Program-made: the position numbers and the translations under genes
Shown: piece by piece, positions 8,077-62,770 of the stretch
Position numbering within the stretch: position 1 is the stretch's first letter
Layout: each line of letters begins with the position of its first letter
IMG/VR virus record: IMGVR_UViG_2740892439_000009
DNA from: a virus
Lineage: Duplodnaviria; Heunggongvirae; Uroviricota; Caudoviricetes
Strand: one strand, 5' to 3'
DNA length: 64,000 bases
Notes under the pieces: model-generated
The model's input: the letters and a program-made list of their open reading frames with translations, nothing else
What the model was told of the DNA's origin: nothing
Databases searched by the model: none

Positions 8077-8154
8077 TTCAATTCGTATGTAAGTGCTTAC
8101 CTACAATTAGTTTCTAATTTATGATATAAATCTGCCATCCGATTTGACTTATTC

Positions 8155-8490
8155 ATGGAGGAAGACATGTCAAACGAGATGGCAGGCGTGACGCCAGAGC
8201 AGGTGGAGCGCATTGCCGCAATTGTTGCGCGAGAAGTCGTAGGAAAATTAAGTAAGGAGCTTCGCGATGATATTGGCCAGGAGGTCAACGATCAGCTGCG
8301 AACCTACTTTGGCGATATGACTCCGGCGCAACATAGCATTCAGCATTCCAACCTGGACAAACTTCTTAATCGGCTCGACACGATTTCAAGCGGGTTCTTT
8401 GGAGGCATTATTTCCAAGATTACCTCGTTCCTGATCACCGTGCTGCTTTTGGGTTTGGCCGCTTATGGCGTGAAAAATGGACTGCAATAA
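8155..8490 (+). CDS. Small protein with one C-terminal TM helix; candidate holin or lysis-associated protein
   Basis: 111-aa ORF immediately upstream of the endolysin-like gene; hydrophobic C-terminus FFGGIISKITSFLITVLLLGLAAYG. Role inferred from position only. Confidence 0.35.
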   Translation: MEEDMSNEMAGVTPEQVERIAAIVAREVVGKLSKELRDDIGQEVNDQLRTYFGDMTPAQHSIQHSNLDKLLNRLDTISSGFFGGIISKITSFLITVLLLGLAAYGVKNGLQ

Positions 8491-8503
8491 CAGGAGAACA
8501 AGG

Positions 8504-9196
8504 ATGAGTACTCCAAGAGGCATTCGTAACAACAACCCTGGCAACCTGGATAAAGGGTCGCCGTGGCAAGGGTTAGTAAACAACCCGTCGGAACCGCGGT
8601 TCTGTACTTTTAAAGACCCCGTATGGGGGATTCGAGCACTGACAGTAACGCTCATCACCTACCATGATAAGCGCCGTGCAAAAGATGGCTCCAGCATCGA
8701 TACGATCCGCGAAGTCATCGAGCGTTGGGCGCCGCCACACGAAAACAACACCGCCGCCTATATCAATGAGGTTTCTAAAGCCGTTGGCGTGACGCCGGAC
8801 ATGATCATCGATCTGCATGACTACAATACTATGCGGCCGCTGGTGGAGGCGATTATTCGTCATGAGAACGGTCGTGGCCCTTTGAAAACACTCAACAGCT
8901 GGTATTCGGCCGAAGTTATTGACGAAGGTATGCGTCGCGCCGGCGTCGTTAAACCGGTAACTGCAGTGAAAGCCGTACCTGTCACGAAAGAAACTGCAGG
9001 CGCAACGGTGACTGCAGGTATCGGTATTGCGCAGCTGGCGGACGTAATGCCGCAGATCTCCGTTGCGATGGATAAGGCCCAGGGACATATTACCAGCGGT
9101 GATACCGTTCGCATTATCTTCGGTATTGCGACCATTGTTGTCGCCGGCTTTATTGCCTGGTCGCAAGTTCGTAAGCATCAGGCAGGAGTGGTGTAA
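8504..9196 (+). CDS. Endolysin-like peptidoglycan hydrolase (NNNPGN motif) with C-terminal hydrophobic segment
   Basis: ATG with AGGAG upstream; N-terminal GIRNNNPGNL motif as recalled from phage muramidase/lysozyme-like families; sits between candidate holin and spanins. Confidence 0.45.
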   Translation: MSTPRGIRNNNPGNLDKGSPWQGLVNNPSEPRFCTFKDPVWGIRALTVTLITYHDKRRAKDGSSIDTIREVIERWAPPHENNTAAYINEVSKAVGVTPDMIIDLHDYNTMRPLVEAIIRHENGRGPLKTLNSWYSAEVIDEGMRRAGVVKPVTAVKAVPVTKETAGATVTAGIGIAQLADVMPQISVAMDKAQGHITSGDTVRIIFGIATIVVAGFIAWSQVRKHQAGVV

Positions 9197-9198
9197 CC

Positions 9199-9450
9199 AT
9201 GAACGGCAGCCTGCTTTCAAAAGTCAAATCGACCATCATGACTTTGGCTGCCGTCTTCTCTGTGCTCGTTGGGGCGTACACCTGGGGTGGACGAGCTGCC
9301 CGGCGGGCCATGGAAGAAAAGGCGCAGAGAGAAACCAACAAACGGCTTCAAGGCACAGTGGATGTGAAAAATGAGACGATTAATGAAGTCAGGACTAAGG
9401 ATGCTTCTGCCGTTCATCGCGAGCTTCGCGATAAGTGGATGCGTGATTAA
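9199..9450 (+). CDS. i-spanin (Rz-like)
   Basis: N-terminal TM helix followed by a charged, coiled-coil-prone periplasmic region; the next gene is embedded in its 3' end. Confidence 0.55.
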   Translation: MNGSLLSKVKSTIMTLAAVFSVLVGAYTWGGRAARRAMEEKAQRETNKRLQGTVDVKNETINEVRTKDASAVHRELRDKWMRD

Positions 9451-9598
9451 ACCCCAGACCGTGGGCGTACAATTCTGCGATGGGGCTAACCCTATCTACA
9501 TCAGCAAGGACGACGCCCTGACAGAAGAAACTGAGAGGGAAATCCTGATCCACAACACGCTGGGTGAGCGAATCTGTGATTGGGGGAAAGGTACATAA
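9371..9598 (+). CDS. o-spanin lipoprotein (Rz1-like), overlapping the i-spanin gene
   Basis: Signal peptide with lipobox AISGC; short product; typical overlapped Rz/Rz1 arrangement. Confidence 0.55.
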   Translation: MRRLMKSGLRMLLPFIASFAISGCVIKPQTVGVQFCDGANPIYISKDDALTEETEREILIHNTLGERICDWGKGT

Positions 9599-9611
9599 GG
9601 AACTGACGTAA

Positions 9612-9650
9612 GATGCGCTTGCGTTGATGTGAGGCGCATCTGTTTCTTCT
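9612..9650 (+). terminator. Rho-independent terminator after the lysis cassette
   Basis: Hairpin GATGCGC..GCGCATC followed by a T-rich tract. Confidence 0.5.
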
Positions 9651-9841
9651 ATCTGTAATCGAGTAAATGCCGTCATCCAAGTTCACCGAACTTGATTATT
9701 CTTCACCGAACTTCACTCAAGGTAATCTTGAATCATCCTGCTTAATGATGTAGATTTAACCAACAGCTGACGATGTCGTCAGCCGTTAGACCTGAAAAGG
9801 TGCCGCAATGACATTCAATTGTTAACGGCTAAGGTGGAAAC

Positions 9842-10234
9842 ATGCACAACGCACTGAACGCATCCCGTTCTATACAAACGATCCGTGATTGCACGAGCGT
9901 TATTGAGACTCATGTGCTGGCTCAGCACAAGATTGAAGTCCGTAAGCTCAACAATGACGCGGTTGATCTAAAAGACACTCGCTTCATCATCACCTTTAAA
10001 AATGATGTTGAGAAGCCGTGTGCCAGCGTAAAGCCGTTAGCGGAAGCAATCTTCCTGAACGGACGTGTACGTTTTGTCGTAAAACCTGATAAGCAATACC
10101 CTGAATTTTTGCGTCATTTAAAAGAGTTTTCTGAGGTGATAGAACATTCTATTCGTCGCTTCGTACTTGGTCATGGTAGCATTAGTAGTCATGTAAAGGC
10201 TGATAGATCTGCTACCAAATGGCTCCTACACTAG
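9842..10234 (+). CDS. Hypothetical protein
   Basis: ORF with SD-like GGTGGAAACATG; no recognisable motifs. Confidence 0.45.
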   Translation: MHNALNASRSIQTIRDCTSVIETHVLAQHKIEVRKLNNDAVDLKDTRFIITFKNDVEKPCASVKPLAEAIFLNGRVRFVVKPDKQYPEFLRHLKEFSEVIEHSIRRFVLGHGSISSHVKADRSATKWLLH

Positions 10235-10971
10235 ATAGCTCATACTCTAAAGATCTTAGCGAGTTTCCTCATAAAGGGGAGACTCTTGTATCTCGTTTCG
10301 GTTACATAATCAACGAAGCCTCTCTCTTCAAAATTTCTGAAATCACCATTGTTGATCCCGAAGATGATATAGTTTTGTACACCCGGATAGAACGGGTTGG
10401 TGCGCTTGATCAGGATCAGTTGATGGAGTTCATCTTGGACAAGGCTGATGACGATATTCCTGAAGAGGATATCATCAGAGAACTTCTTCGCTCCGGTATA
10501 ATCGATGAAAGCAAAAATTCTATAGTAGGCAGAATTGCCTTGCGAGAATACAGCTTCGTTGAAGATGGAAATGAGGTTGAATGCTACCAAGTGGCAGGTG
10601 TTGAGACTGTGAAAGCTATTCGTCAGAGAGGGCTGTGCCATCGCACATACCTGTTCTTGCTTCACTGGTACGAACATCTAGTTTGTGACGATATGCAGAC
10701 AATCCCTGGTGCTAAGATCTGGGCAGGGCCTCTCATGCGAACCGGCGATGTGCGTATATACAATGCCAAAACAGAAACGTTCGAGGATGTGTTAGGTGAG
10801 TACGGGATGGGGAAAGAAACCGGATTTTTGCCGTGGAACAGAGGATTGTTGCTTGATGCAGAGTTAAGCTCTTGGCTCCCAAACAAAGTGCAAGTTAACG
10901 TTCAGAAATTTATCGTACTTATCATCTCCCGCAAAACAAGAACTCCAGTAGGTTTATACCTAAAAGATTAA
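10219..10971 (+). CDS. Hypothetical protein
   Basis: Overlaps the upstream ORF by 16 nt (probable operon); followed by a strong terminator. Confidence 0.5.
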   Translation: MAPTLDSSYSKDLSEFPHKGETLVSRFGYIINEASLFKISEITIVDPEDDIVLYTRIERVGALDQDQLMEFILDKADDDIPEEDIIRELLRSGIIDESKNSIVGRIALREYSFVEDGNEVECYQVAGVETVKAIRQRGLCHRTYLFLLHWYEHLVCDDMQTIPGAKIWAGPLMRTGDVRIYNAKTETFEDVLGEYGMGKETGFLPWNRGLLLDAELSSWLPNKVQVNVQKFIVLIISRKTRTPVGLYLKD

Positions 10972-10976
10972 AAATA

Positions 10977-11002
10977 AGGCGACTTTGGTCGCCTTTTTTG
11001 TT
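10977..11002 (+). terminator. Rho-independent terminator
   Basis: GGCGAC..GTCGCC hairpin followed by TTTTTT. Confidence 0.6.
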
Positions 11003-11147
11003 AACAGCCATTGATTCTCGCCTAAAAATTCTAAGGCAGCACCTACCATTTAACCTTTACACCACAGCCGTAGGCATTTAGGCTATATCACATATAAGAA
11101 AACAAGTTGTTTCAGACGATAATTATATACGCAAAGGGAACTCTCCA

Positions 11148-11816
11148 ATGACCAAGATCTTTGTGGTTGGCGGCACAAAGGGCGGGCCTGGCAAATCCAC
11201 CGTTGCCCAGCAAATTGCCGTTTGCCTGAAAGTCAAAAAGAAGAAGAAGGTTTATATCACCGATATAGATATTCAGCGCACGACAACGAGCTGGTGTGAA
11301 GACCGTCGACAGAACGAAGACCTTGAGCTGATTCCTTTTGCATACGTTCAGGATGACATCATTAAGCACCTAAAATCGCTTCAGGGTAGAGCTGAGTTTG
11401 TAGTGGTAGATGCTGGTGGCTTCGACTCCGAAATTCAGCGACAAGCGATGCTGATGGCTGACGTTATCATTATCCCGCTGCGTCCTAAGCGTCGTGATTT
11501 GAAATCTTTACGTGACATCGATCCTATTATCGACAATGTTCGCAATGTAAACGATAAAGTGAAGGTCCGCGCGGTCATGAACCAGTGCCCGGCTTTGCCA
11601 TCACAAGTGTCTCGCATTCTGGCGGCTAAAGAGATTGTCGAGACGTTTGGCATCGAGTCTGCGCCAGTCAATCTATATAACCGCAACGTCTACGATGATG
11701 CGGAAGAGTCTGGTCGTTCTATCTTCGAAATGACCGGTAGCGAGCGCGACAAAAAGGCGGAAGCCGAGTTTGAAGAATTTGTAGATTATCTGTTGAGTCT
11801 GGAGGAAGAAGAATAA
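11148..11816 (+). CDS. parA: ParA-family partition ATPase (small, type Ib)
   Basis: Deviant Walker A GGTKGGPGKST; size about 220 aa; followed by a small RHH-like gene. Confidence 0.8.
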   Translation: MTKIFVVGGTKGGPGKSTVAQQIAVCLKVKKKKKVYITDIDIQRTTTSWCEDRRQNEDLELIPFAYVQDDIIKHLKSLQGRAEFVVVDAGGFDSEIQRQAMLMADVIIIPLRPKRRDLKSLRDIDPIIDNVRNVNDKVKVRAVMNQCPALPSQVSRILAAKEIVETFGIESAPVNLYNRNVYDDAEESGRSIFEMTGSERDKKAEAEFEEFVDYLLSLEEEE

Positions 11817-12175
11817 TGTCCATGAAAATGGGTGACCTAGCAAAGCGCAAAGAGCCTGATGCACCGGCTAAGAACACAACTCCTTTGCGCCAACCAGTCA
11901 GACCACAAGGACGCCCGACTCGTGGCAAAGAGAAAATTAAAAGCCGCACCATGTCACTGGAAGACGAATACTTCGAGCTTCTGGAAATGATGAAGTTTAT
12001 CCCTCGTTTCGAGAAGTTCACCCGCTCTGATGTGATTCGTGCTGCTATTTTCCATCTGGCAGAGAAGTCGCCGCAGGAAATCGAGGATATCGTGAAACTT
12101 AACGAGGCGATCACTGCTGCCGACGTCACGATGCGTACCGATGAAATCAAACGCGAGTTGATGAAGAAAGGTTAA
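11816..12175 (+). CDS. ParG-like ribbon-helix-helix centromere-binding protein (candidate)
   Basis: Basic disordered N-terminus and C-terminal RHH-like segment; start overlaps the parA stop; terminator hairpin GAGGTGC..GCACCTC downstream. Confidence 0.5.
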   Translation: MSMKMGDLAKRKEPDAPAKNTTPLRQPVRPQGRPTRGKEKIKSRTMSLEDEYFELLEMMKFIPRFEKFTRSDVIRAAIFHLAEKSPQEIEDIVKLNEAITAADVTMRTDEIKRELMKKG

Positions 12176-12219
12176 TTTTATTGAGGTGCTGCTTGGCACC
12201 TCTTTCTATAGGTTCCCTA

Positions 12220-12939: not shown

Positions 12940-13005
12940 CTCCAGACTTTCCTCAAATGATTATGTTGGGCGCTTTTCTTATTGAACTGGTTAGTGAGGC
13001 TAATA

Positions 13006-14195: not shown

Positions 14196-14265
14196 TTTGG
14201 AACCTGCTTCTGTATATAAATACTAAGTTACTTATTATTATTTATACGGAAGCAGGTCTTTTTCT
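14196..14265. repeat. Palindromic element CTGCTTCTGTATATAAATA..TACGGAAGCAGG (second copy near 61041-61105)
   Basis: 9-bp inverted repeat arms around an AT-rich core containing TATAAATA; followed by a T tract. Confidence 0.6.
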
Positions 14266-14366
14266 ATGCCAACTTCCCAGACACATTCCCTTCCGTTTCC
14301 ACTTCCAAAAACTGCCACCAGTCGCTATCATCCGCTCATTGCAATAAGTAAGTAACTACCTATCGG

Positions 14367-16577: not shown

Positions 16578-17762
16578 CACATGAACCTTTATATTATATC
16601 AACATTTAGGTTGGTCACAATATTGCCTGTTAAAAGTGGAATTATCGTGAGCGAGCTGAAAGAGCTAATTGCCGAATTAGATTTTGAACAATGGTTGGAT
16701 ACTGAAGGTATCGTTTATCGACGTGGAGGCGTGAGTGCTCGCGGTCGTGAAGTGAATATCAAAGAGTGTCCGGTATGCGGCAGCTCCAACTGGAAGGTAT
16801 ATTTCAATCTGACCAGTGGCGTCGGCAAATGCTTCGCTGGTGATCATCCCGAAGAGATTCAGTTCAATAAGCTGGTCTTCCTCAAGCACTACAGCAGTAA
16901 ATCACGACGACAGTTCGAGGAATATGTGCAGAACGCTCTTCTTTCCCAGGGGTGGGCACCAAAGAAAGAAGAGCTAGTGCTTGCAAGCACAGTCGAGTTA
17001 GAGGGGCCAGTTGCACTCCCTCGTCATTACGAACTTCCTATAGATGGCCGTCTTCCAGACTATCTGGTTGAACGAAACATATCACCTGAAATGGCAAAGT
17101 ATTTTGACCTACGATACTGCGTCGAAGGCAAGCACGCTTATGTAGATCCGTATACAGATCAGGTTAAAGGACAGATATTCGATATGCGAATACTGATACC
17201 GATTTACGATCTGGATGGGGTAATGAAGACATTTCAGGGACGAGACATTACCGGTACAGCAGAACGCCGCTACCTCTTTCCTATGCAGCTTCCAGCTTCA
17301 GGTAAATTTCTCTACAACGGCCATAATGCAGTCGGCAAACAGACTGTAGTTGTCTGTGAGGGTGCGTTCGATGTTATGGGGGTCAAACGAGCTATTTTCG
17401 ACGAAGAAACATTACGTGATTACGTGGAGCCAATAGGAACGTTCGGGATGCATCTATCTGGCAACACCACTCAGGATGCAGAAGATCAGTTGGGCGCGTT
17501 CCTGACGCTCAAGGCGCGTGGATTACGTAATGTGATCATGATGTGGGATAGTGAAAAGCAAGCTATACGCAACACTATGGCCGCAGCCAGGCGACTGACC
17601 AGTATCGGTCTTAATGTCAAAGTTGCGTGTTTGGGCGAGGAAGGACTCGACCCGGGCGGTGCAACGCCAGAACAAATTATCAAAGCCTATTATCGGGCAA
17701 AACCGTATACCAAACAGTTGGAGTTGCAAAGCAAGGTTTTGGGCATTAAGGCTCTATCGTAA
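16578..17762 (+). CDS. DnaG-like DNA primase (zinc-binding and TOPRIM domains)
   Basis: CPVCGSS..KCFAGDH zinc motif; TOPRIM-like VVVCEGAFDVMGV and MMWDSEKQ; conserved start context AAAGAAAAACACATG. Confidence 0.7.
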   Translation, partial: HMNLYIISTFRLVTILPVKSGIIVSELKELIAELDFEQWLDTEGIVYRRGGVSARGREVNIKECPVCGSSNWKVYFNLTSGVGKCFAGDHPEEIQFNKLVFLKHYSSKSRRQFEEYVQNALLSQGWAPKKEELVLASTVELEGPVALPRHYELPIDGRLPDYLVERNISPEMAKYFDLRYCVEGKHAYVDPYTDQVKGQIFDMRILIPIYDLDGVMKTFQGRDITGTAERRYLFPMQLPASGKFLYNGHNAVGKQTVVVCEGAFDVMGVKRAIFDEETLRDYVEPIGTFGMHLSGNTTQDAEDQLGAFLTLKARGLRNVIMMWDSEKQAIRNTMAAARRLTSIGLNVKVACLGEEGLDPGGATPEQIIKAYYRAKPYTKQLELQSKVLGIKALS

Positions 17763-17837
17763 CAAGTGCCGCCAAAATAAGTAGATGATTACTTATCTTT
17801 CTGTAAGAATACTTTCATCTGTTAGCTAGGAGTTGGT

Positions 17838-18620: not shown

Positions 18621-18675
18621 TCTCTCAGTGTGTCGTTTTTTACGCAAAGAATGATAGGTAAGTACAAGATTATTT

Positions 18676-27667: not shown

Positions 27668-29047
27668 ATGTCTAAAAAACGTTCCATCAAAGAGGTTCAG
27701 GACTTCCGTGACAGTGTAAAACGAGTAGTCGCTCTCCTTTCAGGTAAAAACATCCCTGTTGCAGAACGAGGGGACGACGCTTATGTACGCTATAACGATG
27801 ATGGAGAGCCAATTCTCGTAAACATCCCATCAATCCCGGATAACGCAACACCGGCATTGATGAATGCTGTGCGCGGATTTCTCGATCATGAGGTTGCTCA
27901 CATTTTGTTTACCGATATTCGTGTGTCCAACAAAATGAGAGAAAAAGGACGCGTTCCTTCCTGGTCGCTATGGAATGCCTTAGAAGACGTGTTCATCGAG
28001 CGAAAAATGGGGCAGGTCTTTAACGGAACAAGACGTAATCTGATGGCAACTCAGCGCCTTATAATCGAAAAAGTCTTTAAACCAAAGGCTTCAGAGGCTA
28101 TTGCTTATTGTGGCAAAGATCAGCGCGCGCTTTTTCTAAACTTCTTTCTCTGTCCGGTTGTAAGAGCCTGGGATGGCCAAGCACCGTTCGTAGATTTCAT
28201 GGATGAATATTGGCCTGTCATTGAGAAACCAATTTCATTATTAAAAGAACATGGTATCGATGTGGCCGTGCGTAACATGTCTTGCACCGAGGATTGTGTA
28301 AAGGTGGCTGCGACCATAGCTAAGATCCTCAAAGACACTGAAAGTGAAAGCAAAGGTAAGGAGTCAGCTCCGGGAAAAACTTCCGATCCTTCAGACGCTG
28401 ACCAGACGGATGCCTCTGGAGAAAACAATGAAGACAACGAAGATCATGAGACACCCTCATCGTTAGATAATCACAAATCTATCGAATCAGAATCACATAG
28501 TAAGCACAAACATGATAATAACGACAGCGATGATTCAGATAATTCTGAATCATCAGAAACAATATTCGATGATACAGAAAATGATAAAGAGGTATCAGAT
28601 TCTGATGCTTCTGATAACGCGGCGTCAGAATCATTAACCGCTGACCACGAAAAAAGAAAAACGACAGAAGACGGCTCTTCAGATATCCCAACTCCGTCAA
28701 AAATGAGTCTGGAAGAGGCTTTAGAGGAGCTGGATAGCATAGAAGATGAAGTCGGAGGCATGACAGAAGATGCTCTATCCGAAACGATTAAAAGCGAGTT
28801 AACAGAAAGCTCGAAAAGCGAATACAGGCCATACAATCGCTCATACGACTTCATCGGCTCGATTGATCAGGCAGAAGCCATATCAAACGGCTTATTAAAA
28901 CATTCTCCGATATTGATTTGGGAGGATATCCAATCAGCCGCTATCGCATCGTTCCTGAAGGCAACCAGCTCTTCGACAAATATATTGAAAAGCATCTTTC
29001 GTCAGGTGTTTCGTCGACGCTGGCAAAAGACCTGGAGCGAGCAATAG
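27668..29047 (+). CDS. CobT-like protein, N-terminal segment with acidic low-complexity linker (frame lost near 28915)
   Basis: Paired with a downstream vWA segment and a CobS-like AAA ATPase; highly acidic D/E/S-rich middle region. Confidence 0.5.
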   Translation: MSKKRSIKEVQDFRDSVKRVVALLSGKNIPVAERGDDAYVRYNDDGEPILVNIPSIPDNATPALMNAVRGFLDHEVAHILFTDIRVSNKMREKGRVPSWSLWNALEDVFIERKMGQVFNGTRRNLMATQRLIIEKVFKPKASEAIAYCGKDQRALFLNFFLCPVVRAWDGQAPFVDFMDEYWPVIEKPISLLKEHGIDVAVRNMSCTEDCVKVAATIAKILKDTESESKGKESAPGKTSDPSDADQTDASGENNEDNEDHETPSSLDNHKSIESESHSKHKHDNNDSDDSDNSESSETIFDDTENDKEVSDSDASDNAASESLTADHEKRKTTEDGSSDIPTPSKMSLEEALEELDSIEDEVGGMTEDALSETIKSELTESSKSEYRPYNRSYDFIGSIDQAEAISNGLLKHSPILIWEDIQSAAIASFLKATSSSTNILKSIFRQVFRRRWQKTWSEQ

Positions 29048-29775
29048 CAAGCAGAAACAGAGTTCAGTTTATACCGGGCCAGCGTCGGGGGCGCATTCAT
29101 GGTTCTAGTATCTACAGATTAGCAATGAATGATGATCGCGTGTTTCGTAAAAAAGAAGAATCTAAAGCCGTTAACGCCTGTGTTCAACAAGTGATTGATT
29201 TATCAGGTTCAATGAGTGGTATAACGATACAATTGGCTCTTGCAAGTGCATATACCATCGCCGATGCCCTTGATCGAATAAATGTTCCCAACATTATCAC
29301 CGGCTTCACTACATTTGGTAGTCATATGGCGGCAGGAGAACTTAAGGCTGTCAAGTATGAGTTCTCTCGCTTTGAATCTTTAATGCTACCTATCATCAAA
29401 AATTGGAATGAAAAGGTAAATTCTCGCGAAGTTCGCTCACGTATGGGGTGCGTAGGCTACACATTCCCACTTCTTAATAACGTGGATGGTGAAAGCATAG
29501 CCAGCCTTGCATCGTTATTTTCCGGTCGCATGGAGGACAGGAAGATCATGCTTGTTCTGAGTGACGGCGCGCCGTGGGCTGTTGGGAGAGGTTTTGACGC
29601 TCATTTGCGTTCGGTTGCGAAGCAAATTGAAACGCAGACTGACATTGATTTGATGGCAATTGGCATCATGACTGACGCACCGGAGAGATTTTACTCAAAT
29701 CATGCCCTGGTAACGAGCGTTGATAGTCTTGGTTCATCTGTAGTTACTGAACTATCTCGTATCATTTTGAAGTGA
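28918..29775 (+). CDS. von Willebrand factor A domain segment (CobT-like C-terminus, -1 frame)
   Basis: MIDAS motif VIDLSGSMSG. Confidence 0.65.
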   Translation: MGGYPISRYRIVPEGNQLFDKYIEKHLSSGVSSTLAKDLERAIASRNRVQFIPGQRRGRIHGSSIYRLAMNDDRVFRKKEESKAVNACVQQVIDLSGSMSGITIQLALASAYTIADALDRINVPNIITGFTTFGSHMAAGELKAVKYEFSRFESLMLPIIKNWNEKVNSREVRSRMGCVGYTFPLLNNVDGESIASLASLFSGRMEDRKIMLVLSDGAPWAVGRGFDAHLRSVAKQIETQTDIDLMAIGIMTDAPERFYSNHALVTSVDSLGSSVVTELSRIILK

Positions 29776-29870
29776 ATAAAACAGCCTTAATGATAAGTAA
29801 CCACTTACGATAGTTAATGGTATATTTATATAAGAAGTTGAACGCTCATTAGAGAACAAAGGAAAAACGC

Positions 29871-34836: not shown

Positions 34837-35107
34837 AGAATTATGGCGCTTGTTGAGGAAGTCACTCCTCTTACGCACTTTGTTTTGCCATGCCGGCAGT
34901 TAGCTTCTGCCTTTGACTATTCATGCGGCAACCCCGCATTTCGCCACAATGGGCAATTCACTTTTATGGAATAAACTGGCCGTTGTGTCGATTTAATTAG
35001 CATGGCCTTACCATGCTAATTTATTCAACTTGTACAATCCTACAAATCTATCCACTCAGGCTTACACCGTCTTCGTTATTGTAGAAATGAGGATCATCAG
35101 CGTTGAA

Positions 35108-35323
35108 TCAGCTTAGAGCAACGACATTTGCTGCTGCTGGGCCTTTAGCCCCATTCTCGATAGAGAATTCGACCTGCTGGCCTTCTTCCAAAGTGCGGAA
35201 ATTATTACTCTGAATTGCCGAAAAATGTACAAAAACATCTTTACTGCCATCAGCAGGAGAAATAAAGCCAAAGCCTTTATCAGAGTTAAACCATTTTACT
35301 AAACCAGTCATTTTATTAGACAT
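35108..35323 (-). CDS. cspA: Cold-shock protein, CspA family
   Basis: [38 protein letters not shown] is near-identical in pattern to E. coli CspA; SD AAGAAGG; long upstream leader; terminator-like hairpin near 34995-35020. Confidence 0.85.
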
Positions 35324-35652
35324 AGATATTACCTTCTTAATTTTGTGAGCCACATAGTGCGGCGAGAATTTGATCTGTATAGATTGGGACTTACTTAGGC
35401 ACTTAAGGAGGAGACTCACGAAGAAGGGAAATCAGAAGATAACACTGAACTGAGACTGCTTTACTAAAACTGCTTACATAAGGTCTGTCTTGCAAACCAA
35501 CGATGCTATTAACGCATACCCCTTCTTTTCATGCAACCTTTATTTTTCAAAGATAACTAATTTTTGTCACCATTGGTTTAGTAAACGTTAACGAACCAGA
35601 CGATGCCAGACACCTTTACAGAGAACAGATGCCCGCCAATTGGCGGGCATCA

Positions 35653-37187: not shown

Positions 37188-37304
37188 TTTTTGATAGATA
37201 ATAAGTAAGTACTGATCTATCATTTAACAGCTCGAAAGAGCCACGAATGAACGAAAGCCCAACGCGCATAGCGCCATCGGCCAAATCACAACAAGGAGAA
37301 ACAC

Positions 37305-40679: not shown

Positions 40680-40684
40680 ACACA

Positions 40685-40711
40685 AGGCGTCCACATGACG
40701 CCTTTTTTATC
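40685..40711 (+). terminator. Rho-independent terminator
   Basis: AGGCGTC..GACGCCT hairpin followed by TTTTTTAT. Confidence 0.6.
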
Positions 40712-40771
40712 TCTTGAAAATACATAAGTACTTACTTATTATTTTCGCATAACAACCACATAGGAAAACAC

Positions 40772-42322: not shown

Positions 42323-42377
42323 TCGCCTATTCATAACTAACAAAATAAGTAAACACTAACCACAAAAGGAAAAACAC

Positions 42378-42653: not shown

Positions 42654-42692
42654 GTTTACAGTAAAATTTATATAAGTTAGTATCTACCTATC

Positions 42693-46055: not shown

Positions 46056-46309
46056 CCCTCCAGATCGCATATTGGCGTAGATAAAATCTACGCCTCCTCA
46101 AAATAGCTCTCATAGCGTTCTACAGTGATCCTGTCTTATTTTTAGTCATACAGACAAGCAAAGTTGCACCACAACAAATAGGTATATACTTACTTATAAA
46201 TTTTGTATATTAAGTCGCTCGTTTCATTCCTAACATACCGTTATGCATAGTTGTTTACCTTCTCATTGCTCTTAGAATTTGTATCAAAATAACCACAAAG
46301 GAAAAACAC

Positions 46310-50853: not shown

Positions 50854-50926
50854 TTTCATTGATAGGTAAGTGCTTATCTATTAACATGGGCCACTATATT
50901 TAGTGGCCCTCTTTATTTGGTGATAC

Positions 50927-52135
50927 ATGATAAGCATCGTAAAACGTAACGGCCAAACAGAGCCGTTATCCGAAGAAAAATACAACCGCGTCGTAATGTA
51001 TGGCGTAGAAGGCATTCGTGGCGTAAGCGCATCCGCTGTAGCAATGGGAGCTGTGGCCAGCATTTTTGATGGGATGACCACCAGCCAGTTGCATGAGGCT
51101 TTGGTTAAATCTGCCGCTGATTTGATCTCACCAGAAGCACCAAATTACTCACAGGTGGCTGCCCGCCTGAACATTTTTAAAATCCGCAAAGATGCCTTCG
51201 GTCGTTACGACTATCCGAACTTCTACCAACACATTGTCAAGAACGTTAACAAGGGCGTTTATGACAAGGATTTGCTGACACATTATTCATTTGAAGAGAT
51301 CGAAGAACTCGGCAATTACATTAAGCCTAAACGTGACGATCTTTTTGGCTATGCGGCTACGGTGCAATTGCAAAGCAAATACCTCGTTCAAAACCGTGTT
51401 ACTGGTGAGATTCATGAGGGGCCGCAACATATCTATATGCTGGTGGGCATGTGTCTGTTCCAGAATTGGGAAGACGACTGCGCTGGCAAAACACGTATGG
51501 AGATGGTCAAAGGTTTCTATGACGTTACAAGTACGTTCAAACTGTCTCTGCCCACACCAATCATGGCCGGCGTCCGTACTCCAACCCGTCAGTTCTCCAG
51601 TTGTGTGCTGATTGAGTCTGGCGATAGTCTGAAAGGGATTAGTGCAGCTTCAGCCGCAATTATCGACTACGTTTCACGTCGTGCTGGAATTGGTATTGGT
51701 TTTGGCCGTATCCGTGCGCTGGGCAGCGAGATCCGCAATGGTGAAGCCACCCATACCGGAGTTATTCCATTCCTGAAGCATTTCCAGACTGCTGTTAAAT
51801 CTTGCTCGCAAGGTGGTGTCCGTGGTGGCGCAGCAACAGCGTTTTACCCGATCTGGCATCTTGAAGTTGAAAGTCTGCTGGTGGTGAAAAATAACCGTGG
51901 TATCGATGAAAACCGCGTTCGCCATCTTGATTACGGCGTCATGAGTAACCGTCTGATGTACCGTCGACTCGTCAGAAGCGAGAACATCACTCTGTTCAGC
52001 CGCATGATGTGCCTGATATGTACGAAGCCTTCTTCACAGACCAGGATCTGTTTGAAAAGCTGTACCATAAATACGAAGCCGATGATTCAATTCGCAAGAA
52101 GTCAGTACCTGCCATTGAGCTGTTCTCATCTCTGA
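50927..52135 (+). CDS. nrdA: Ribonucleotide reductase class Ia alpha subunit NrdA, N-terminal segment (frame lost near 51990)
   Basis: High similarity in pattern to E. coli NrdA through ENITLFS, then nonsense. Confidence 0.85.
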   Translation: MISIVKRNGQTEPLSEEKYNRVVMYGVEGIRGVSASAVAMGAVASIFDGMTTSQLHEALVKSAADLISPEAPNYSQVAARLNIFKIRKDAFGRYDYPNFYQHIVKNVNKGVYDKDLLTHYSFEEIEELGNYIKPKRDDLFGYAATVQLQSKYLVQNRVTGEIHEGPQHIYMLVGMCLFQNWEDDCAGKTRMEMVKGFYDVTSTFKLSLPTPIMAGVRTPTRQFSSCVLIESGDSLKGISAASAAIIDYVSRRAGIGIGFGRIRALGSEIRNGEATHTGVIPFLKHFQTAVKSCSQGGVRGGAATAFYPIWHLEVESLLVVKNNRGIDENRVRHLDYGVMSNRLMYRRLVRSENITLFSRMMCLICTKPSSQTRICLKSCTINTKPMIQFARSQYLPLSCSHL

Positions 52136-53241
52136 TGCAGGAACGAGCGTCCACGGGCCGAATTTATATTGCGAACGTCGATCATATTAACGAGCATGGC
52201 GCTTTCATTCCTGCTCTTGCACCTGTTCGCCAGTCAAACCTGTGTATGGAGATCACTTTACCTACTCGTCCACTGACATTTACCGACGACCCGAACGGTG
52301 AGATCGCGCTGTGCACTTTATCCGCTTTTAACCTCGGAGCCATTCGTTCACTGGAGTCTCTTAAAGAGGTGGCATTCTATGCCGTTGCTGCACTGGATTC
52401 GTTACTGGATTATCAAGACTATCCGATGGAGGCAGCCGAAGTGCCTGCCAAAGCTCGTCGTAGCTTGGGAATTGGTGTAACCAACTTTGCTTATTACCTG
52501 GCAAAGAATGGCGTTCGTTATTCTGATACCGCTGGCAATAAACTGGTGCATGAAACGTTCGAAGCTATCCAGTATTACCTTCTTGATGCCAGCTGCCGAC
52601 TTGCTGAAGCAAAAGGTGAGTGTGACTGGTTTGAGCAGACCAAGTACGCAATTGGTCAGTTGCCGATCGACCATTACCGTTCTTCATTAGACGAAAGTGG
52701 CGAAACCAACTTTGAGTTAAAGATGCCGTGGGAAGAACTGCGTGAACGTATTGCAAAATACGGCCTTCGCAACTCCACACTGACGGCACAAATGCCATGC
52801 GAGACTTCCAGCCAGATCACTAATTCCACCAACGGCATCGAACCGCCTCGTGGCCCGGTGTCGGTGAAATCTTCTAAGGACGGCATCGTTAAGATGGTCG
52901 TGCCTGAGTTTGAAAAACTGAAGGAACAGTATGAATACCTGTGGGATATGCCGGACAACCGCGGCTATCTGACAAAGGTGGCGATCATCCAGAAGTTCTT
53001 TGACCAGGCTATTTCAGCCAATACCAACTATGACCCTTCTCGCTTTGAAGGCGATAAAGTCCCAATGATGACGCTACTGTCAGATTTGCTTCTCGCCTAC
53101 AAGATGGGAGTTAAAACGCTTTACTACCACAACACCAGAGATGGGGCAGGAAAGCGTGATGACGACGAACCGCAAAATCCACTGACGCAAGCTGTAGCCG
53201 TCGAGCCAGAAGATGAGTGCGACGGAGCCTGCAAAATCTGA
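52009..53241 (+). CDS. nrdA: NrdA C-terminal segment (-1 frame)
   Basis: Continues the E. coli NrdA pattern from DVPDMYEAFF to the C-terminal CDGACKI. Confidence 0.85.
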   Translation: MPDMYEAFFTDQDLFEKLYHKYEADDSIRKKSVPAIELFSSLMQERASTGRIYIANVDHINEHGAFIPALAPVRQSNLCMEITLPTRPLTFTDDPNGEIALCTLSAFNLGAIRSLESLKEVAFYAVAALDSLLDYQDYPMEAAEVPAKARRSLGIGVTNFAYYLAKNGVRYSDTAGNKLVHETFEAIQYYLLDASCRLAEAKGECDWFEQTKYAIGQLPIDHYRSSLDESGETNFELKMPWEELRERIAKYGLRNSTLTAQMPCETSSQITNSTNGIEPPRGPVSVKSSKDGIVKMVVPEFEKLKEQYEYLWDMPDNRGYLTKVAIIQKFFDQAISANTNYDPSRFEGDKVPMMTLLSDLLLAYKMGVKTLYYHNTRDGAGKRDDDEPQNPLTQAVAVEPEDECDGACKI

Positions 53242-55436: not shown

Positions 55437-55607
55437 TTGTAGGTAGTTGTCTATCTGTGTATATTGCATTTGCGCGTTAAATTTCTGAAACAACTATTCG
55501 TTTTTGGTGGCCTATGGCCACCATTTTTTTATCTATCTGGTCTTGTTCTCTCAATAAATGTAAACTCAAACAATGAATAAGTGGTTACTTATCTTTGTGA
55601 GGTTTTT

Positions 55608-56711: not shown

Positions 56712-56712
56712 T

Positions 56713-58243: not shown

Positions 58244-58304
58244 AAATTGTTCGCCTCTTCGACATTGCGACAATAAAACTCTCAAAATGGGTTAAGGATA
58301 AAAA

Positions 58305-58724: not shown

Positions 58725-58733
58725 GGAGTTCTG

Positions 58734-59288
58734 ATGACAACGATTGTTGCAGGCATCGATATCGAGTCTACGGGACTGGATTTCCTTGCTGGTCATAAAA
58801 TTATTGAAATCGCAATTACCCGCTATGAACTGGAGACACAGACAATGGTTGATAGTTTTGTAATGCGGTTCAACCCGCGTCGCAGTATCGATCCGAAAGC
58901 GCAAGCGGTACACGGCATCAGTCTTGAAGATTTAGCCGCCGAGCCGTTACTAGCCGATCACGCTTCATCTGTCGCTTCGTACCTCTCTTCTTCCGATATT
59001 TGGATAGCCCACAACGGCGAAGCGTTCGATATTCCGTTTATTAGGCATGAGCTGAAAAGTTACGGTTTTTCGCTTCCAGACATCCCATTGATTGACACTC
59101 TATTTTCCCTGTGGGCCACAGAAGACGGTAAACGTCCTCGCCTTGAAGAATTGGCCTTCTCTCTTGGCTTTATATACGATCATGCCAAAGCACATAGTGC
59201 CTTATATGACACAAACTTAATGATGCAATGCTTCTTTAAGGCACGTAATAAATACGGATTTTTTAAATTACCCTCTGAAATTGTGTAA
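58734..59288 (+). CDS. DnaQ-like 3'-5' exonuclease (DEDDh)
   Basis: Exo I IDIESTGL, Exo II HNGEAFDIPFI, Exo III HSALYD. Confidence 0.75.
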   Translation: MTTIVAGIDIESTGLDFLAGHKIIEIAITRYELETQTMVDSFVMRFNPRRSIDPKAQAVHGISLEDLAAEPLLADHASSVASYLSSSDIWIAHNGEAFDIPFIRHELKSYGFSLPDIPLIDTLFSLWATEDGKRPRLEELAFSLGFIYDHAKAHSALYDTNLMMQCFFKARNKYGFFKLPSEIV

Positions 59289-59448
59289 AACAAAAGCCTG
59301 CTTTAAAGAGAGTTTGAAGCAGGCTTTCTTTTAAAGAACAGTCGCCTTTCAATCATTTCCTGCCTGTATTTAATACTTTTCCGCCTGATAGGTTTAGTCA
59401 AAATGTAGCCATCGAAACGCAAATGCAACTAAACAGAAGGAGACTTAC

Positions 59449-60258
59449 ATGAGTTCGGTTGAAAATGTAATGACAAATGATGATCTGGATGAGCTGACAG
59501 CCATGTTGCAATCACTTGATGAACCAGTAAAAAAAGCTGCACAGGTTGAAAATACTGATGATATTGACGATCTGCTGCTCGGCCTCGATGCTGGCGTAGC
59601 CATGAGTTCTGATGATGTTGCCGAAGAACTGTTCAATGAAGAAAAAGCAGGTGATTTCAGCTCTGCTTTAAATGAGTTGGAGTTAGCGCATGAGCCTATA
59701 AACGTAATTAACGCTGAAAGTGTTGAAGCTGCCGAAAACGAGCCAGAACAATTGGGATTGATTGAGGTTGAAGAGTGTGTTGATGTTAATGATGAATTAA
59801 AAGTTCAACAGTCAAATGATAGCAACACAAATAAAAAAGCGCGTACTGCAAGAGGTCCTCGTTTTACTTTAAGTGATAAAGATGATTCGTTTTTCAATAA
59901 CGCAGGCTTAGAAACAGATATTTTCTTAGACGCTTACGAAAACGCGCCTGTCAAAGCAAAGGATAAGATATTAAACCTTCTTAATTGGTTTAGCGGAGGT
60001 CCAGATATTAGTGTTTACACGGTAATTTCCATGAGACACCTTCTCACAGAAAAGAAGGCTACAAGTAATAGTATTAAGATTGCTTTAATGAGCAATCCAG
60101 AAAAACCGTATCCGCTTAACACTGCGTCAACTCAGGCTGGGCAAATGATGGCAGTATTTCCAGCTACAGGAATTGCCGTTAGAGACGGTGGAAATCTAAC
60201 ATTGAACGAAGAATCACCGATCGTTAAGAAGTTTGTCGCGGAGTACACTATTGGATGA
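59449..60258 (+). CDS. Acidic hypothetical protein
   Basis: 269 aa, D/E-rich N-terminal half; terminator hairpin downstream. Confidence 0.45.
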   Translation: MSSVENVMTNDDLDELTAMLQSLDEPVKKAAQVENTDDIDDLLLGLDAGVAMSSDDVAEELFNEEKAGDFSSALNELELAHEPINVINAESVEAAENEPEQLGLIEVEECVDVNDELKVQQSNDSNTNKKARTARGPRFTLSDKDDSFFNNAGLETDIFLDAYENAPVKAKDKILNLLNWFSGGPDISVYTVISMRHLLTEKKATSNSIKIALMSNPEKPYPLNTASTQAGQMMAVFPATGIAVRDGGNLTLNEESPIVKKFVAEYTIG

Positions 60259-60440
60259 CGTTCCCCTACTTAAAATAAAGCCCATAGAGAGCTTTATAGT
60301 GCTGGGTAAGCTAACCCATACCCAGCACCACAAAAACGCGCCAGAGAGCTTCTTGTTCGCATTTCTGGCGCGTTTTATTTGATTGCCATACATAAAATCA
60401 AATGCAAAAATAGGTAATCACTTACCTATCGAGAAAGAAG

Positions 60441-61034
60441 ATGATTGCAGCCGAAAAAATCAAACAGCGAAAGCGCGACAACTCTCTTCGTGACCTCTGG
60501 AGAACACCTGATTGGCTGTTTTCTGCCATTCAACGTTATCTTGGAGTGACATTTGATGTTGACGTTGCCTGCAACAAGGACAATGCAAAGCTGCCTAATT
60601 TCATAGGCGTTGAGCGCGATGCTTTGAAATCTGAATGGGGACAGCCAGGTACAATTGCCTTCCTCAATCCACCCTACTCCAAAATCTCCCCCTGGATTGA
60701 TGCTGCTATACGTGAGCAGGCTCGCGGAGTTACAACAGTGATGCTAATTCCTCAATCCCTCGATACAAAGTGGTATGAGCGTGCAACAGAGTATGCGAAT
60801 GAGACGATTATTCTGTCTGGTGGCCGCGTAGCGTTTGTCGAGCCTGACGTCAATTTGGGTCAGGTAGAAGTAAACATCAACCCCGGTGGCAGTATGCTCG
60901 TTGTTTTTCGAGGGTTTTGTCAGGACGCTGGGCACTCTATAAGCAAGATCCCTTTGGACGTCATGAAAAGTCTGGGAGGGTATGACCCTGCGAATGTGAT
61001 CAGGAAAAAAAGACCATCAAAGAAGGCTGCTTAG
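60441..61034 (+). CDS. DNA N6-adenine methyltransferase, phage Dam family
   Basis: WRTPDWLF and NPPYS motifs. Confidence 0.7.
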   Translation: MIAAEKIKQRKRDNSLRDLWRTPDWLFSAIQRYLGVTFDVDVACNKDNAKLPNFIGVERDALKSEWGQPGTIAFLNPPYSKISPWIDAAIREQARGVTTVMLIPQSLDTKWYERATEYANETIILSGGRVAFVEPDVNLGQVEVNINPGGSMLVVFRGFCQDAGHSISKIPLDVMKSLGGYDPANVIRKKRPSKKAA

Positions 61035-61219
61035 TTTGCTCTGGCGTCTGTAATTAGCTGCTTCTGTATATATAAATAACTACATATTAATTATTAATAT
61101 ACGGAAGCAGGCTGTTTTGTATCAGAGACTCCCAGACCTGAACATCACTACAGAATCCACTAGAACCCCTTCCCAGACGCTTTAAAATCGATTTTATGAA
61201 CCACTTTAAGGAAACCAAC

Positions 61220-61450
61220 ATGTCATACCCGACTAATGTCGTTGCGCTCGTAGAGAGCGATTTTCTGGCCCAGGCTCGTGAAATGATGAAAGATCGTGAG
61301 CAGGCTTTCAACTTGTACGAGTGGGCAATTAAGTGCTTGCATCTTGGCGAGCATCGCGAACTTGTTGAACAGCTTTTAGGTGAGTTGATCAATGAGGTGT
61401 TTGCCTTGAATGTTCAACTACATGGTCGAGAAAATAATCAATCACAATGA
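61220..61450 (+). CDS. Hypothetical small protein
   Basis: 77-aa ORF with AAGGAAACCAACATG context. Confidence 0.4.
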   Translation: MSYPTNVVALVESDFLAQAREMMKDREQAFNLYEWAIKCLHLGEHRELVEQLLGELINEVFALNVQLHGRENNQSQ

Positions 61451-62029
61451 TAGATAAGTACAAACTATTCATAAAGTGAATTGTAAGTGCTAAGATCTGA
61501 TAGTTTCCAGTCGTAGACTGGAGGCTCGACCTGATGGGTGGGGGTAAGCGTCACTGGCGTCAGGTTTAAAAAAGCTCACTACCAGCGTAGAACCGGTGCC
61601 GTATAGGTGTCGGGGAAGGGGGAACCAAAGTGAGCAGAGACAAGGGTCACTTTATGATTGTCGAGTCTGGGGTGTTTCGAGAGGTTGAATCCAGTACTCC
61701 CCTTCATAAAGTGTGGGAAGATCTCGGTTCTGGGGTGCTGTCATCCATAACTTCCCAAGTCTAAGCTGGCAGTAGACTTAGACCATAGCTTTTCAGGTTA
61801 TGAAACGACCAGGTTGGTGAGGAATTTTATACTCACCTCCCTGGGAGAGTATTACCTGAAAAGACAACCTCTCACTTCGTTCGAGGTGAACTTCACTCAC
61901 TTCGTTCGTTCAGTTCAGGTTTATAAAAACCTGTTCTGGGAAGTAATTTGTTTATTTTAATAATTATTAACACGCACGCGTGTGCGCACGCGCGAGGAAA
62001 AATCGGCGCGGCGCTTGATTCAGGAGTTT

Positions 62030-62622
62030 ATATGACGACGAAGACACCAGCCCGATCGCAAGCAAAAACTCGCAAAAAAGACAAAAACAAAAATTCTCCC
62101 CGCACCAATCCCACAACGTCTGTCGTAGAGTTCAATCCCCAGCTTAAAACCGTGAAAATCTTTAGTGATGGCTCTTGCCTTAAAAATCCGGGTGGCCCGG
62201 GCGGTTACGGTATCGTTCTCCAGTATCGTGGTGAGGAACGCGAGTTCTCAGATGGTTTTCATAGCACCACCAATAACCGCATGGAGATGATGGGGGCACT
62301 TATCGGGCTGGAGCGTTTGAAATATCCATGCAACGTTATTTTGCACTCTGATAGCCAGTATCTGAAAAACGGCATGACACAGTGGATGAAATGGTGGAAA
62401 CGCAATGGATGGATGACTTCTGACAAAAAACCGGTAAAGAATGTTGATCTGTGGAAGCGTCTGGATGAGGCCGCAAGTCGACATAATGTTCGCTGGAAGT
62501 GGGTTAAAGGTCACGCCGGGCATCGTGAAAATGAAATATGTGATCGACTCGCGAAGATCGCAGCTTTTTCAGCAGCAGATATGCCTCACAAGAAAGATAT
62601 TGGTTTTGTTTATAACAAATAG
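62030..62622 (+). CDS. rnhA: Ribonuclease HI
   Basis: [52 protein letters not shown]; CAGGAG SD. Confidence 0.85.
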
Positions 62623-62770
62623 TAAGTAAGTGTTTACCTATCATTTTAAATCATGTATCTTATCGGCGTCAGGATGACAATGTGTCGGTAAGACACAGTT
62701 CCAGGATGGAACGAGAAAGGCGGCTGGCGATTGCCAGCCGCAACTCTTTCTGACACTGGATGGAGTCCAC

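Follow-up and report, generated by a model that had tools for sequence, protein, structure and literature searches.

The 64,000-nucleotide stretch of viral DNA analysed here (the window; IMG/VR virus record IMGVR_UViG_2740892439_000009, Caudoviricetes) runs from a tail J gene to a TciA-like gene and is 98% identical to the Escherichia coli phage-plasmids CMS-2020a and Cyrano, of the SSU5 group. Phage-plasmids of the SSU5 type are frequent in E. coli, Salmonella and Klebsiella; they can be induced and bear antibiotic-resistance genes, yet their regulation is essentially undescribed. The gaps between the genes of the window repeatedly contain a short inverted repeat, referred to here as the dyad, which a preliminary description made from the sequence had noticed and for which it had offered promoters, operators of a phage regulator or RNA stem-loops as possible explanations. 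We show here that the dyad is a genuine regulatory DNA site whose occurrence is strongly non-random and whose conservation is deep, and we consider which protein may read it. No description of the motif was found in the literature searched.

An ungapped alignment of the 16 sites listed in the preliminary description gives a single dyad of constant length, ATARGTAAG-YR-CTTACYTAT, in which two 9-bp arms flank a 2-bp centre to give 20 bp in total. One and the same motif is present at all 16 listed positions, so that the cited copies are genuine; their aligned starts are those in Table 1 other than 28463, 42345 and 61450. The form first given to the motif did not survive this alignment. The pattern ATAGGTAAGT-N2-7-ACTTACCTAT has no exact match in the window, and the variable spacing it implied disappears once all 16 sites are aligned gap-free on the one dyad, the apparent spacer having arisen because overlapping internal AAGT repeats were read. 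Thirteen sites in the window lie within three mismatches of the 20-bp consensus, compared with 0.00 expected from 100 dinucleotide shuffles, and ATAAGTAAG..CTTACTTAT, when allowed up to four mismatches at 18 scored positions, gives 14 matches where 0.25 are expected. A scan with a position weight matrix (PWM) adds the three degenerate sites at 28463, 42345 and 61450, each of which is backed by a stronger orthologous copy in phage SSU5 or the Klebsiella phage-plasmid pJN2-26, and brings the total to 19. The claim that the motif occurs only between genes holds for 18 of these 19 and fails for 28463, a site within the reading frame of CobT. Mirror symmetry extends through the motif into its flanks, to about ±13 bp, with no orientation signal, a signature which points to a symmetric dimeric DNA-binding protein.

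Table 1. Dyads, isolated half-sites and the candidate reader gene in the window (PWM, position weight matrix score; ORF, open reading frame; SSB, single-stranded-DNA-binding protein; RNR, ribonucleotide reductase; HTH, helix-turn-helix)
Feature	Coordinates	Strand	Context	Further details
Dyad GTATGTAAGTGCTTACCTAC	8085-8104		Gap between tail fibre gene and holin (8155)	PWM 21.0; orthologues SSU5 27474, pJN2-26 69442
Dyad ATAAGTAAGTAACTACCTAT	14344-14363		12 nt before ATG of gene upstream of helicase	Large terminator-like hairpin about 90 nt before
Dyad ATAAGTAGATGATTACTTAT	17777-17796		Between primase and next gene (17838)	Orthologues SSU5 38178, pJN2-26 79844
Weaker dyad ATAGGTAAGTACAAGATTAT, right arm poor	18654-18673		Directly before ORF 18676	PWM 15.6; weak orthologues
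Dyad ATAAGTATTTACTTACTTAT	21299-21318		Upstream of tRNA cluster	
Dyad ATAGGTAAGCACTTACTTTT	24951-24970		Gap between AbiGi-like cargo (minus strand) and plus-strand genes	PWM 26.4
XRE-family HTH protein, 128 aa, candidate dyad-binding repressor	26719-27105	-		Weak match to Pfam HTH_19
Dyad TCTGGTAAGTGCTTACCGAT, outer positions deviant	27134-27153		Divergent XRE/27357 region, 28 nt upstream of XRE start	
Lone left half-site ATAGGTAAG	27253-27261		XRE divergent region	
Lone right half-site CTTACCATA	27323-27331		XRE divergent region	
Degenerate dyad TTAGATAATCACAAATCTAT	28463-28482		Within CobT	Stronger in SSU5 43661 (19.9) and pJN2-26 91932 (23.2)
Weak dyad ATAAGTAACCACTTACGATA	29793-29812		Between CobT and CobS	
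Dyad ATAAGTAAGTACTGATCTAT	37201-37220		Between UvsY-like gene and gp32-like SSB	
Dyad ATACATAAGTACTTACTTAT	40720-40739		Occupies spacer of TTGAAA-N17-TATTAT	Terminator 40684-40704 just before
Degenerate dyad ATAAGTAAACACTAACCACA	42345-42364		Before ORF 42378	SSU5 57746 scores 23.4
Dyad ATAAGTTAGTATCTACCTAT	42672-42691			Expression step-up at this junction in Cyrano under macrophage stress
Dyad ATAGGTATATACTTACTTAT	46178-46197		Between ASCH and SbcD	
Dyad ATAGGTAAGTGCTTATCTAT	50862-50881		Between RuvC and RNR alpha	Terminator hairpin 50888-50909 after
Dyad ATGAATAAGTGGTTACTTAT	55573-55592		11 nt before ThyX GTG	Terminator 55505-55523 precedes
Dyad ATAGGTAATCACTTACCTAT	60410-60429		11 nt before Dam ATG	PWM 27.5
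Degenerate dyad ATAGATAAGTACAAACTATT	61450-61469			SSU5 78709 scores 20.0
Dyad GTAAGTAAGTGTTTACCTAT	62622-62641		Between RNase H and next gene (62771)	

The same arrangement extends over whole genomes of the family. Cyrano contains 31 matrix matches, of which about 28 are true dyads, and 29 of the 31 are intergenic and in front of operons although about 87% of the genome is coding (about 13% non-coding); the operons concerned serve virion formation, lysis, replication, recombination and nucleotide metabolism, and the matrix scan found no dyad between 85 and 105 kb of Cyrano. SSU5 has 29 matches and pJN2-26 has 28, at junctions shared with the window. Identity between orthologous dyads of the relatives from E. 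coli, Salmonella and Klebsiella is 86%, compared with 50-54% for the adjoining 20 nt, and the dyads are therefore islands of conservation among the enteric phage-plasmids. Many copies of one site, spread over a genome at operon starts and in intergenic gaps, is the arrangement seen for dispersed operators of prophage repressors.

The same dyad was also found in GC-rich viral contigs which are Rhizobium or Sinorhizobium phage-plasmids. Rhizobium phage RHph_X66 (X66) is syntenic with SSU5, with proteins that are only 25-54% identical, and carries 36-38 copies, almost all of them intergenic and at orthologous places. The expectation that the motif should recur in related genomes is thus borne out at orthologous junctions in SSU5, pJN2-26 and X66. 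In X66 a Shine-Dalgarno (SD) sequence and ATG follow 8-17 nt after the dyad and, because a promoter-like element lies immediately upstream, the dyad can be placed at about +1 to +20. A second Rhizobium phage, RHEph10, shares the host genus and gene order of X66 and yet contains no canonical dyad in the same scan; instead, 11 copies of another perfect-palindrome family, GTCAGTCAATATTGACTGAC, occupy the X66-equivalent junctions, including M/L, helicase, PhoH, XRE, CobT and CobS. Each class of dyad is missing from the genomes that carry the other, save for one RHEph10-type match in pJN2-26 (1 observed, 0.39 expected), which is at chance level. On these sequence comparisons the supergroup contains dyad specificity classes resembling immunity groups, and since X66 and RHEph10 infect one host genus yet use different dyads at equivalent junctions, the protein which reads the dyad is concluded to be encoded by the phage. 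The motif can accordingly be called phage-specific in the sense that its canonical form is absent from phage P1 and RHEph10, but it is common to a whole supergroup that reaches as far as Rhizobium phages.

In X66 a further conserved element directly adjoins the left edge of the dyad, and it is of two kinds: DNA-metabolism genes have GCGCTATAAA, and virion genes have AAGCTTGCAA/TTGCTA (examples at 79293-79304, 84004-84015, 20743-20754 and 24527-24538 of the X66 records L092/L093). This distribution suggests two promoter classes that share one putative operator. A sigma factor made up of region 2 only is also encoded by X66 and RHEph10; having no homologue in the SSU5 family, it was dropped as a candidate reader of the dyad.

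Whether the dyad acts as DNA or as RNA is a question that can be addressed through its arms. A role as RNA stem-loops, whether as terminators, processing sites or translational operators, would draw on the fact that some copies fold into hairpins of 8-11 bp (-7 to -8 kcal/mol), on the nearness of dyads to start codons and on an FljA-like RNA-binding repressor encoded by the close relative Cyrano. However, when 74 distinct copies are compared, the arms form 460 Watson-Crick pairs of a possible 666 whereas shuffling of right arms between sites gives 462.5 ± 6.8, and at the polymorphic pair 4/17 the four combinations are about equally frequent (A-T 16, G-C 16, A-C 14, G-T 14), which is to say that covariation is absent. 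The predicted hairpins are AT-rich and weak, at -2 to -8 kcal/mol with several copies scarcely folding (-2 to -3 kcal/mol), and they have neither the GC-rich stem nor the U-tract of an intrinsic terminator; Rfam has no family match at the dyads. Genuine GC-rich terminators (-12 to -18 kcal/mol) are present as separate elements beside several dyads, and in X66 a predicted start lies within the left arm. Because the arms do not covary and the hairpins are weak, we take the dyad to be a protein-binding DNA site and not an RNA structure, and the stem-loop explanation now seems barely credible.

The true terminators merit comment in their own right. At dyad 50862 a strong terminator hairpin (GGGCCACTATATTTAGTGGCCC followed by a T-run, -17.8 kcal/mol) lies 6 nt after the dyad and not before it, and this dyad-then-terminator order at the RuvC/RNR alpha junction (50862-50909) is kept in SSU5 and pJN2-26. 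A second repeat, an AT-rich hairpin of about 55 bp with a GC clamp (ACCTGCTTCTGTATA...TATACGGAAGCAGGT) and a following T-run, occurs in the window at 14202-14257 and 61058-61110 and is kept in Cyrano (31179, 78099, 108357), SSU5 and pJN2-26. It lies 90-350 nt upstream of dyads, coincides with a large drop in expression after CYRAN_30 of Cyrano, and is probably a family-specific terminator.

The preliminary description had proposed the XRE protein encoded at 26719-27105 as one possible binder, and this remains the best candidate. A structure model gives an XRE/Cro-type domain with a helical tail, for which the nearest folds, all of them weak matches, are Stl, controller proteins, SPC32H Rep, SinR and 434 Cro. 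Homologues of the enteric protein are confined to SSU5-like plasmids of many enteric genera, where the HTH is near-invariant, and syntenic homologues are present in X66 and RHEph10, such that the gene keeps its place throughout the group, adjoining a dyad. Its recognition helix begins YKNANN in the enteric phage-plasmids and YSNPNM in X66, both of which use the canonical dyad, and WTQSNM in RHEph10. RHEph10 thus combines a new dyad with a changed XRE helix, as expected of a relative in which repressor and sites have altered together, and the XRE proteins of X66 and RHEph10 are 40% identical where their replication proteins are 60-70% identical. The region upstream of the XRE gene contains the dyad with deviant outer positions (27134) together with the isolated half-sites, and the XRE-proximal dyad has a matching location in Cyrano (42603), pJN2-26 (90499) and an E. 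coli contig that represents a lineage with an altered XRE helix (L094; ABZCOC010000014.1). In the Cyrano lysogen the XRE gene (CYRAN_45) is expressed about 10-fold above background (96 vs about 10; this and the other expression figures given here come from published per-gene RNA-seq, PMC9928086). A dyad at the candidate's own gene and expression of the candidate in the lysogen are both features of dispersed prophage-repressor systems. The gene is found in nine of 11 family phage records, being missing from SSU5 and from one partial 84-kb record; SSU5, a virion isolate from host Salmonella LT2 which was not deposited as a plasmid, has neither XRE nor an integrase, and all plasmid-derived relatives carry XRE.

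Two observations bear on this region and its variants. An inverted repeat, TTACAACCTTTG/CAAAGGTTagGGTTGTAA (27108-27119 and 27161-27178), brackets the XRE-proximal dyad and is kept in Cyrano, pJN2-26 and L094; in the minus-strand transcript its predicted pairing could sequester the XRE SD sequence. The XRE recognition helix of L094 reads YKYQNQ, and at positions such as 1354, 13167 and 19904-19930 of its reverse complement the left arm of the dyad is changed to GTATGTATG (TAAG to TATG twice) with canonical right arms, which may represent an intermediate in operator/repressor drift. As a test of covariation the lineage (P0032/L094) was ambiguous, and PLSDB has no record near enough to L094 to extend the comparison.

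Expression in the Cyrano lysogen and the promoter context both relate to what binding at the dyad might do. The first genes after dyads have a median at background in the lysogen, that is, they are off, and in condition B6 the mean step across dyad junctions was -0.88 compared with +0.38 at other junctions; across the orthologue of dyad 14344, expression falls from 10.05 to 4.05 log2 between CYRAN_30 and CYRAN_31. Under macrophage stress there are step-ups at some weak dyads, and the higher the dyad score, the lower the expression downstream tends to be (Spearman rho -0.41, p = 0.05, n = 23), the weaker dyads being leakier. A protein bound between -35 and -10, as it would be in the spacer occupied by dyad 40720, represses (PMC3573117). 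The earlier suggestion of a family of promoters is correct to the extent that dyads lie at transcription-unit boundaries, but there is no orientation signal and there are no consistent sigma-70 elements: in the enteric dyads the flanks have no directional -10/-35 signal beyond the palindrome itself. Matches to sigma-70-like promoters are depleted relative to shuffles in window positions 7000-64000 (21 vs 34.8, 22 vs 30.4 and 12 vs 28.7), which is consistent with a genome that avoids unregulated host promoters. Lysogen expression and promoter placement, although neither is direct, favour a repressor operator over an activator site, and of the options first listed it is an operator for a phage regulator that the evidence favours; both the identity of XRE as the binder and the equation of binding with repression are inferred.

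Our preferred reading, to which we would assign a probability of roughly 45%, is that the dyad is the dispersed operator of a phage-encoded global repressor, likeliest the XRE protein, which silences the plasmid prophage. In such a scheme a symmetric dimeric regulator encoded by the phage would bind the dyad as a double-stranded DNA operator, one copy of which would coincide with the start of nearly every transcription unit, or lie just beyond it, whether the unit is structural or serves lysis, replication or nucleotide metabolism. In the plasmid-prophage state the regulator would sit on about 28 sites and the units would be held off, while the weaker dyad and half-sites at the XRE promoter would permit autoregulation; on induction the dyads would be vacated and the units would fire. 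Several points weigh against this. The correlation of expression with dyad score is borderline, and CYRAN_34 shows expression despite the good dyad in front of it. Most enteric dyads are without a recognisable -35/-10 partner, and the dyad may yet serve an activator. The XRE proteins of X66 and the enteric phages are only 27-29% identical and yet must share a 20-bp site, when those of X66 and RHEph10, at 40%, must differ; because of these identities the argument for XRE as the reader rests on two recognition-helix positions. The region-2 sigma factor (35%) and a CopG-like protein (27%) have diverged at least as much between X66 and RHEph10, and the L094 lineage, with its altered XRE helix, keeps a canonical dyad at its own XRE promoter.

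The activator role is best considered alongside the late promoters of phage P1. Here the dyad would be an element of activator-dependent middle or late promoters, in the manner of the P1 Lpa -22 box, and a dimeric activator, produced by the phage once induced, would bind it and bring host RNA polymerase to promoters that have no -35. The scarcity of -35 partners and the depletion of sigma-70-like promoters would both fit, as would the silence of dyad-preceded genes in the lysogen and the step-ups which occur exactly at some dyads under stress; a co-evolving activator would also account for RHEph10-type switching. P1 late promoters likewise have a palindromic AAGT/ACTT element in place of the -35, again at numerous phage-plasmid operons, and their box, AAGTNACTT, has that half-site in common with the dyad. 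Positions 18-23 often read TATNNT (TATCAT, TATTAT, TACAAT), which would resemble a -10 were the dyad centred at about -22. However, TATNNT is mirrored on both sides of the dyad (-10 match 3.89 vs 3.87), and because the match is equal on the two sides it belongs to the palindrome and does not mark a directional -10. P1 late boxes are annotated as AAGT[G/T]ACTT, 9 bp, with a -10 hexamer 4 bp downstream, whereas the dyad has an AAG-YR-CTT centre, one base shorter and inside a 20-bp palindrome, with no directional -10 at a fixed distance. The asymmetric conserved element of X66 lies upstream of the dyad with SD and ATG within 8-17 nt of it, and ThyX and Dam start 11 nt after theirs, leaving no room for a -10 and a leader. 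Better sites go with lower expression, which is opposite to the trend for an activator site, and one site class before both replication and virion genes would give no temporal order. There is no Lpa homologue: tblastn of P1 Lpa against the window and Cyrano gave only E >= 0.46, and phrog_1704 was matched only by P1 Lpa itself. Membership of the P1 Lpa late-promoter class was rejected on box spacing, flank symmetry, start-codon distances and absence of Lpa, and we consider an activator-dependent promoter of this kind unlikely. A faint likeness to T4 MotA boxes, also raised at the outset, does not stand either, as only TG-centre dyads hold TGCTTA, which is then followed by C, and the consensus (a/t)3TGCTT(t/c)A is not matched; a T4 middle promoter has its box at -30 plus a -10, whereas the dyad is palindromic and lacks a fixed downstream -10 (MotA and AsiA homologues were not searched for).

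Two other families of protein could be envisaged at the dyads. The first is SlmA, a host regulator of the TetR family which acts in nucleoid occlusion and for which the enteric dyads, at about 28 per phage copy, would be binding sites (SlmA-binding sites, SBSs) that either silence promoters or couple copy number or position to FtsZ-ring inhibition. The central 12 bp of the dyad, GTAAGYRCTTAC, fits the published specificity GTRAGY/RCTYAC, which was defined by mutation, and in this resembles the E. coli SBS GTGAGTACTCAC; the published rule demands G, T, A and G at positions 1, 2, 4 and 5, while tolerating any purine at position 3 with unchanged Kd and any pyrimidine at position 6 (PMC3020112). 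When the rule, GTRAGYRCTYAC, is scanned over the window there are 10 matches with at most one mismatch compared with 1.4 expected, eight of them at dyads (perfect cores at 8089-8100, 24955-24966 and 27138-27149; one-mismatch cores at 29797, 40724, 50866, 60414 and 62626) and the others at 16731 and 46677. SlmA represses from an SBS between -35 and -10, and multicopy SBS plasmids render SlmA toxic (PMC3573117). The phage genomes themselves have no TetR protein: no match better than E = 0.8 was obtained when the six-frame ORFs of the window, Cyrano, SSU5 and pJN2-26 were searched with a hidden Markov model built from nine motif-adjacent TetRs. In at least nine unrelated bacteria, moreover, an identical 20-mer adjoins genes of the TetR family whose products have a recognition helix, 'GVSEA', like that of SlmA. 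On the other side, 11 of the 19 window sites (8 of the 16 first cited) have two or more core mismatches, and the SlmA rule does not explain the phage-conserved outer ATA/TAT or the invariant A at SBS position 3. X66 uses the same dyad throughout its genome, and the hosts of Rhizobium phages are alpha-proteobacteria, which are not known to have SlmA. RHEph10, from the same host genus, uses another dyad, so that the reader is phage-encoded. A natural site, SBS17 (sequence from PMC4117426 Table S7), scores only 8.9 bits with the phage matrix; chromosomal SBSs are not in promoters, with two of 24 intergenic, whereas the phage dyad is longer. Host SlmA as general reader was therefore demoted, given that Rhizobium phages share the dyad and RHEph10 has its own, and we judge it improbable as the explanation of even the enteric sites. 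SlmA may nevertheless cross-bind dyads in enteric hosts, as their sequence would allow. It is quite unlikely, although a thought worth recording, that the approximately 28 dyads per copy double as high-affinity SlmA sites, acting as a silencer titrated by replication or as a division hold over unsegregated or replicating phage DNA; if they did, phage-plasmid sites at about five copies per cell would outnumber the 24-52 chromosomal ones, titration of SlmA by replication would make a copy-number-sensitive switch, and the coincidence with the SlmA rule in any case raises the question of whether the plasmid prophage interferes with host division control. The second family comprises the two phage proteins with ParB N-terminal domains (ParB_N), for which dyads would be loading or operator sites of a KorB-like global regulator or a partition system. 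These proteins are kept from X66 to Cyrano (39% identity), and a dyad also stands before the operon that encodes them. KorB of the IncP plasmid RK2 offers a precedent, binding 12 dispersed palindromic plasmid operators as one global autoregulating regulator of the ParB family. Here, in contrast, expression of the ParB-like genes is at the detection floor in the lysogen (5-9.5 vs background about 10), and the products of genes so silent cannot occupy the dyads in the plasmid state; no HTH was detected in these proteins beyond ParB_N. A ParB-like reader is in our view highly improbable.

A further observation on the 20-mer shared with bacteria is that the identical sequence, ATARGTAAGYRCTTACYTAT, was found by exact-pattern scan once in each of 35 unrelated bacterial genomes (L056-L090), which include Planctomycetota, Acidobacteriota, Streptomyces, Nostoc and Chloroflexota (for example L065 6628-6647, L087 2582-2601 and L086 7599-7618). 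Its context there is typically CTTGAC-dyad-TATAAT, and at least nine copies lie directly beside a TetR-family gene (helix GVSEAxIFxHF); the bacterial copy looks like the operator of a widespread TetR subgroup.

Returning to a dispersed repressor operator, two known networks invite comparison. Phage P1 is also a plasmid prophage in which one repressor, C1, controls many operons from at least 15 scattered operators including those in its own regulatory region; the P1 record lists Oref, Omat, Ossb, Oc4, OrepL, Orlf, Odmt, Oban a/b, O26, Oppp, OpmgRa/b, OpmgT and Olpa. The C1 operator is, however, an asymmetric 17-bp site of unrelated sequence, there are no canonical dyads in P1, and the candidate reader to set beside C1 is the 128-aa XRE-type HTH protein. 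P1 late genes are under indirect control via Lpa, whereas here a dyad precedes the virion genes too. A second parallel is with the gp71 'stoperators' of mycobacteriophage L5, reportedly described by Brown et al. in 1997. In L5 a single repressor site recurs about 24-30 times, in short gaps between genes and often by start codons; these copies silence the whole prophage, and related phages show an altered site consensus and altered immunity. Stoperators differ in being 13-bp, asymmetric and orientation-dependent sites which act on elongation, as opposed to a symmetric 20-bp dyad that appears to coincide with promoters and unit boundaries. By analogy, the dyad system is best explained as one comparable in kind to the P1 C1 and L5 networks, with its own sequence, symmetry and protein family.

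The conserved dyad at nearly every unit boundary provides a ready transcription-unit map of the SSU5-like phage-plasmids, and it offers a handle for derepressing or locking them together with a candidate master repressor. The site persists in both enteric and rhizobial phages, although their proteins share 25-40% identity, and a syntenic relative has switched to a second one. Because the dyad is so deeply kept and one relative has switched so cleanly, the group is well suited to the study of how a repressor and its approximately 30 operators co-evolve.

Other features of the window and its relatives also came to light. A cargo module on the minus strand at 22814-24918, missing from Cyrano at this place, encodes an AbiGi-like protein (24052-24918; Pfam PF10899, 2e-24) and a 403-aa partner, likely an abortive-infection or defence pair. 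The CobT (27668-29775) and RNR alpha (50927-53241) genes each consist of two overlapping ORFs, with a change of frame at about aa 459 and aa 402, respectively, and both are intact in Cyrano; the split genes may be pseudogenes, programmed frameshifts or sequence errors. Outside the window (L004), Cyrano encodes on the minus strand at 100780-101301 the protein CYRAN_114, which is homologous over its full length to FljA, a repressor of phase-1 flagellin translation (PF03614, 1e-80); CYRAN_114 has Hfq/LSM-like repeats and is kept in SSU5 and pJN2-26. Upstream of a small cold-shock-like ORF, the minus strand at 35083-35501 holds a full-length cspA thermoregulator (Rfam, 185.7 bits), in the neighbourhood of which Cyrano has HicAB instead. 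Finally, a cluster of three tRNA genes (22080-22322) follows dyad 21299, and phages P7 and D6 have a counterpart of this region, their tRNA-Asn/Thr region, at 93% identity.

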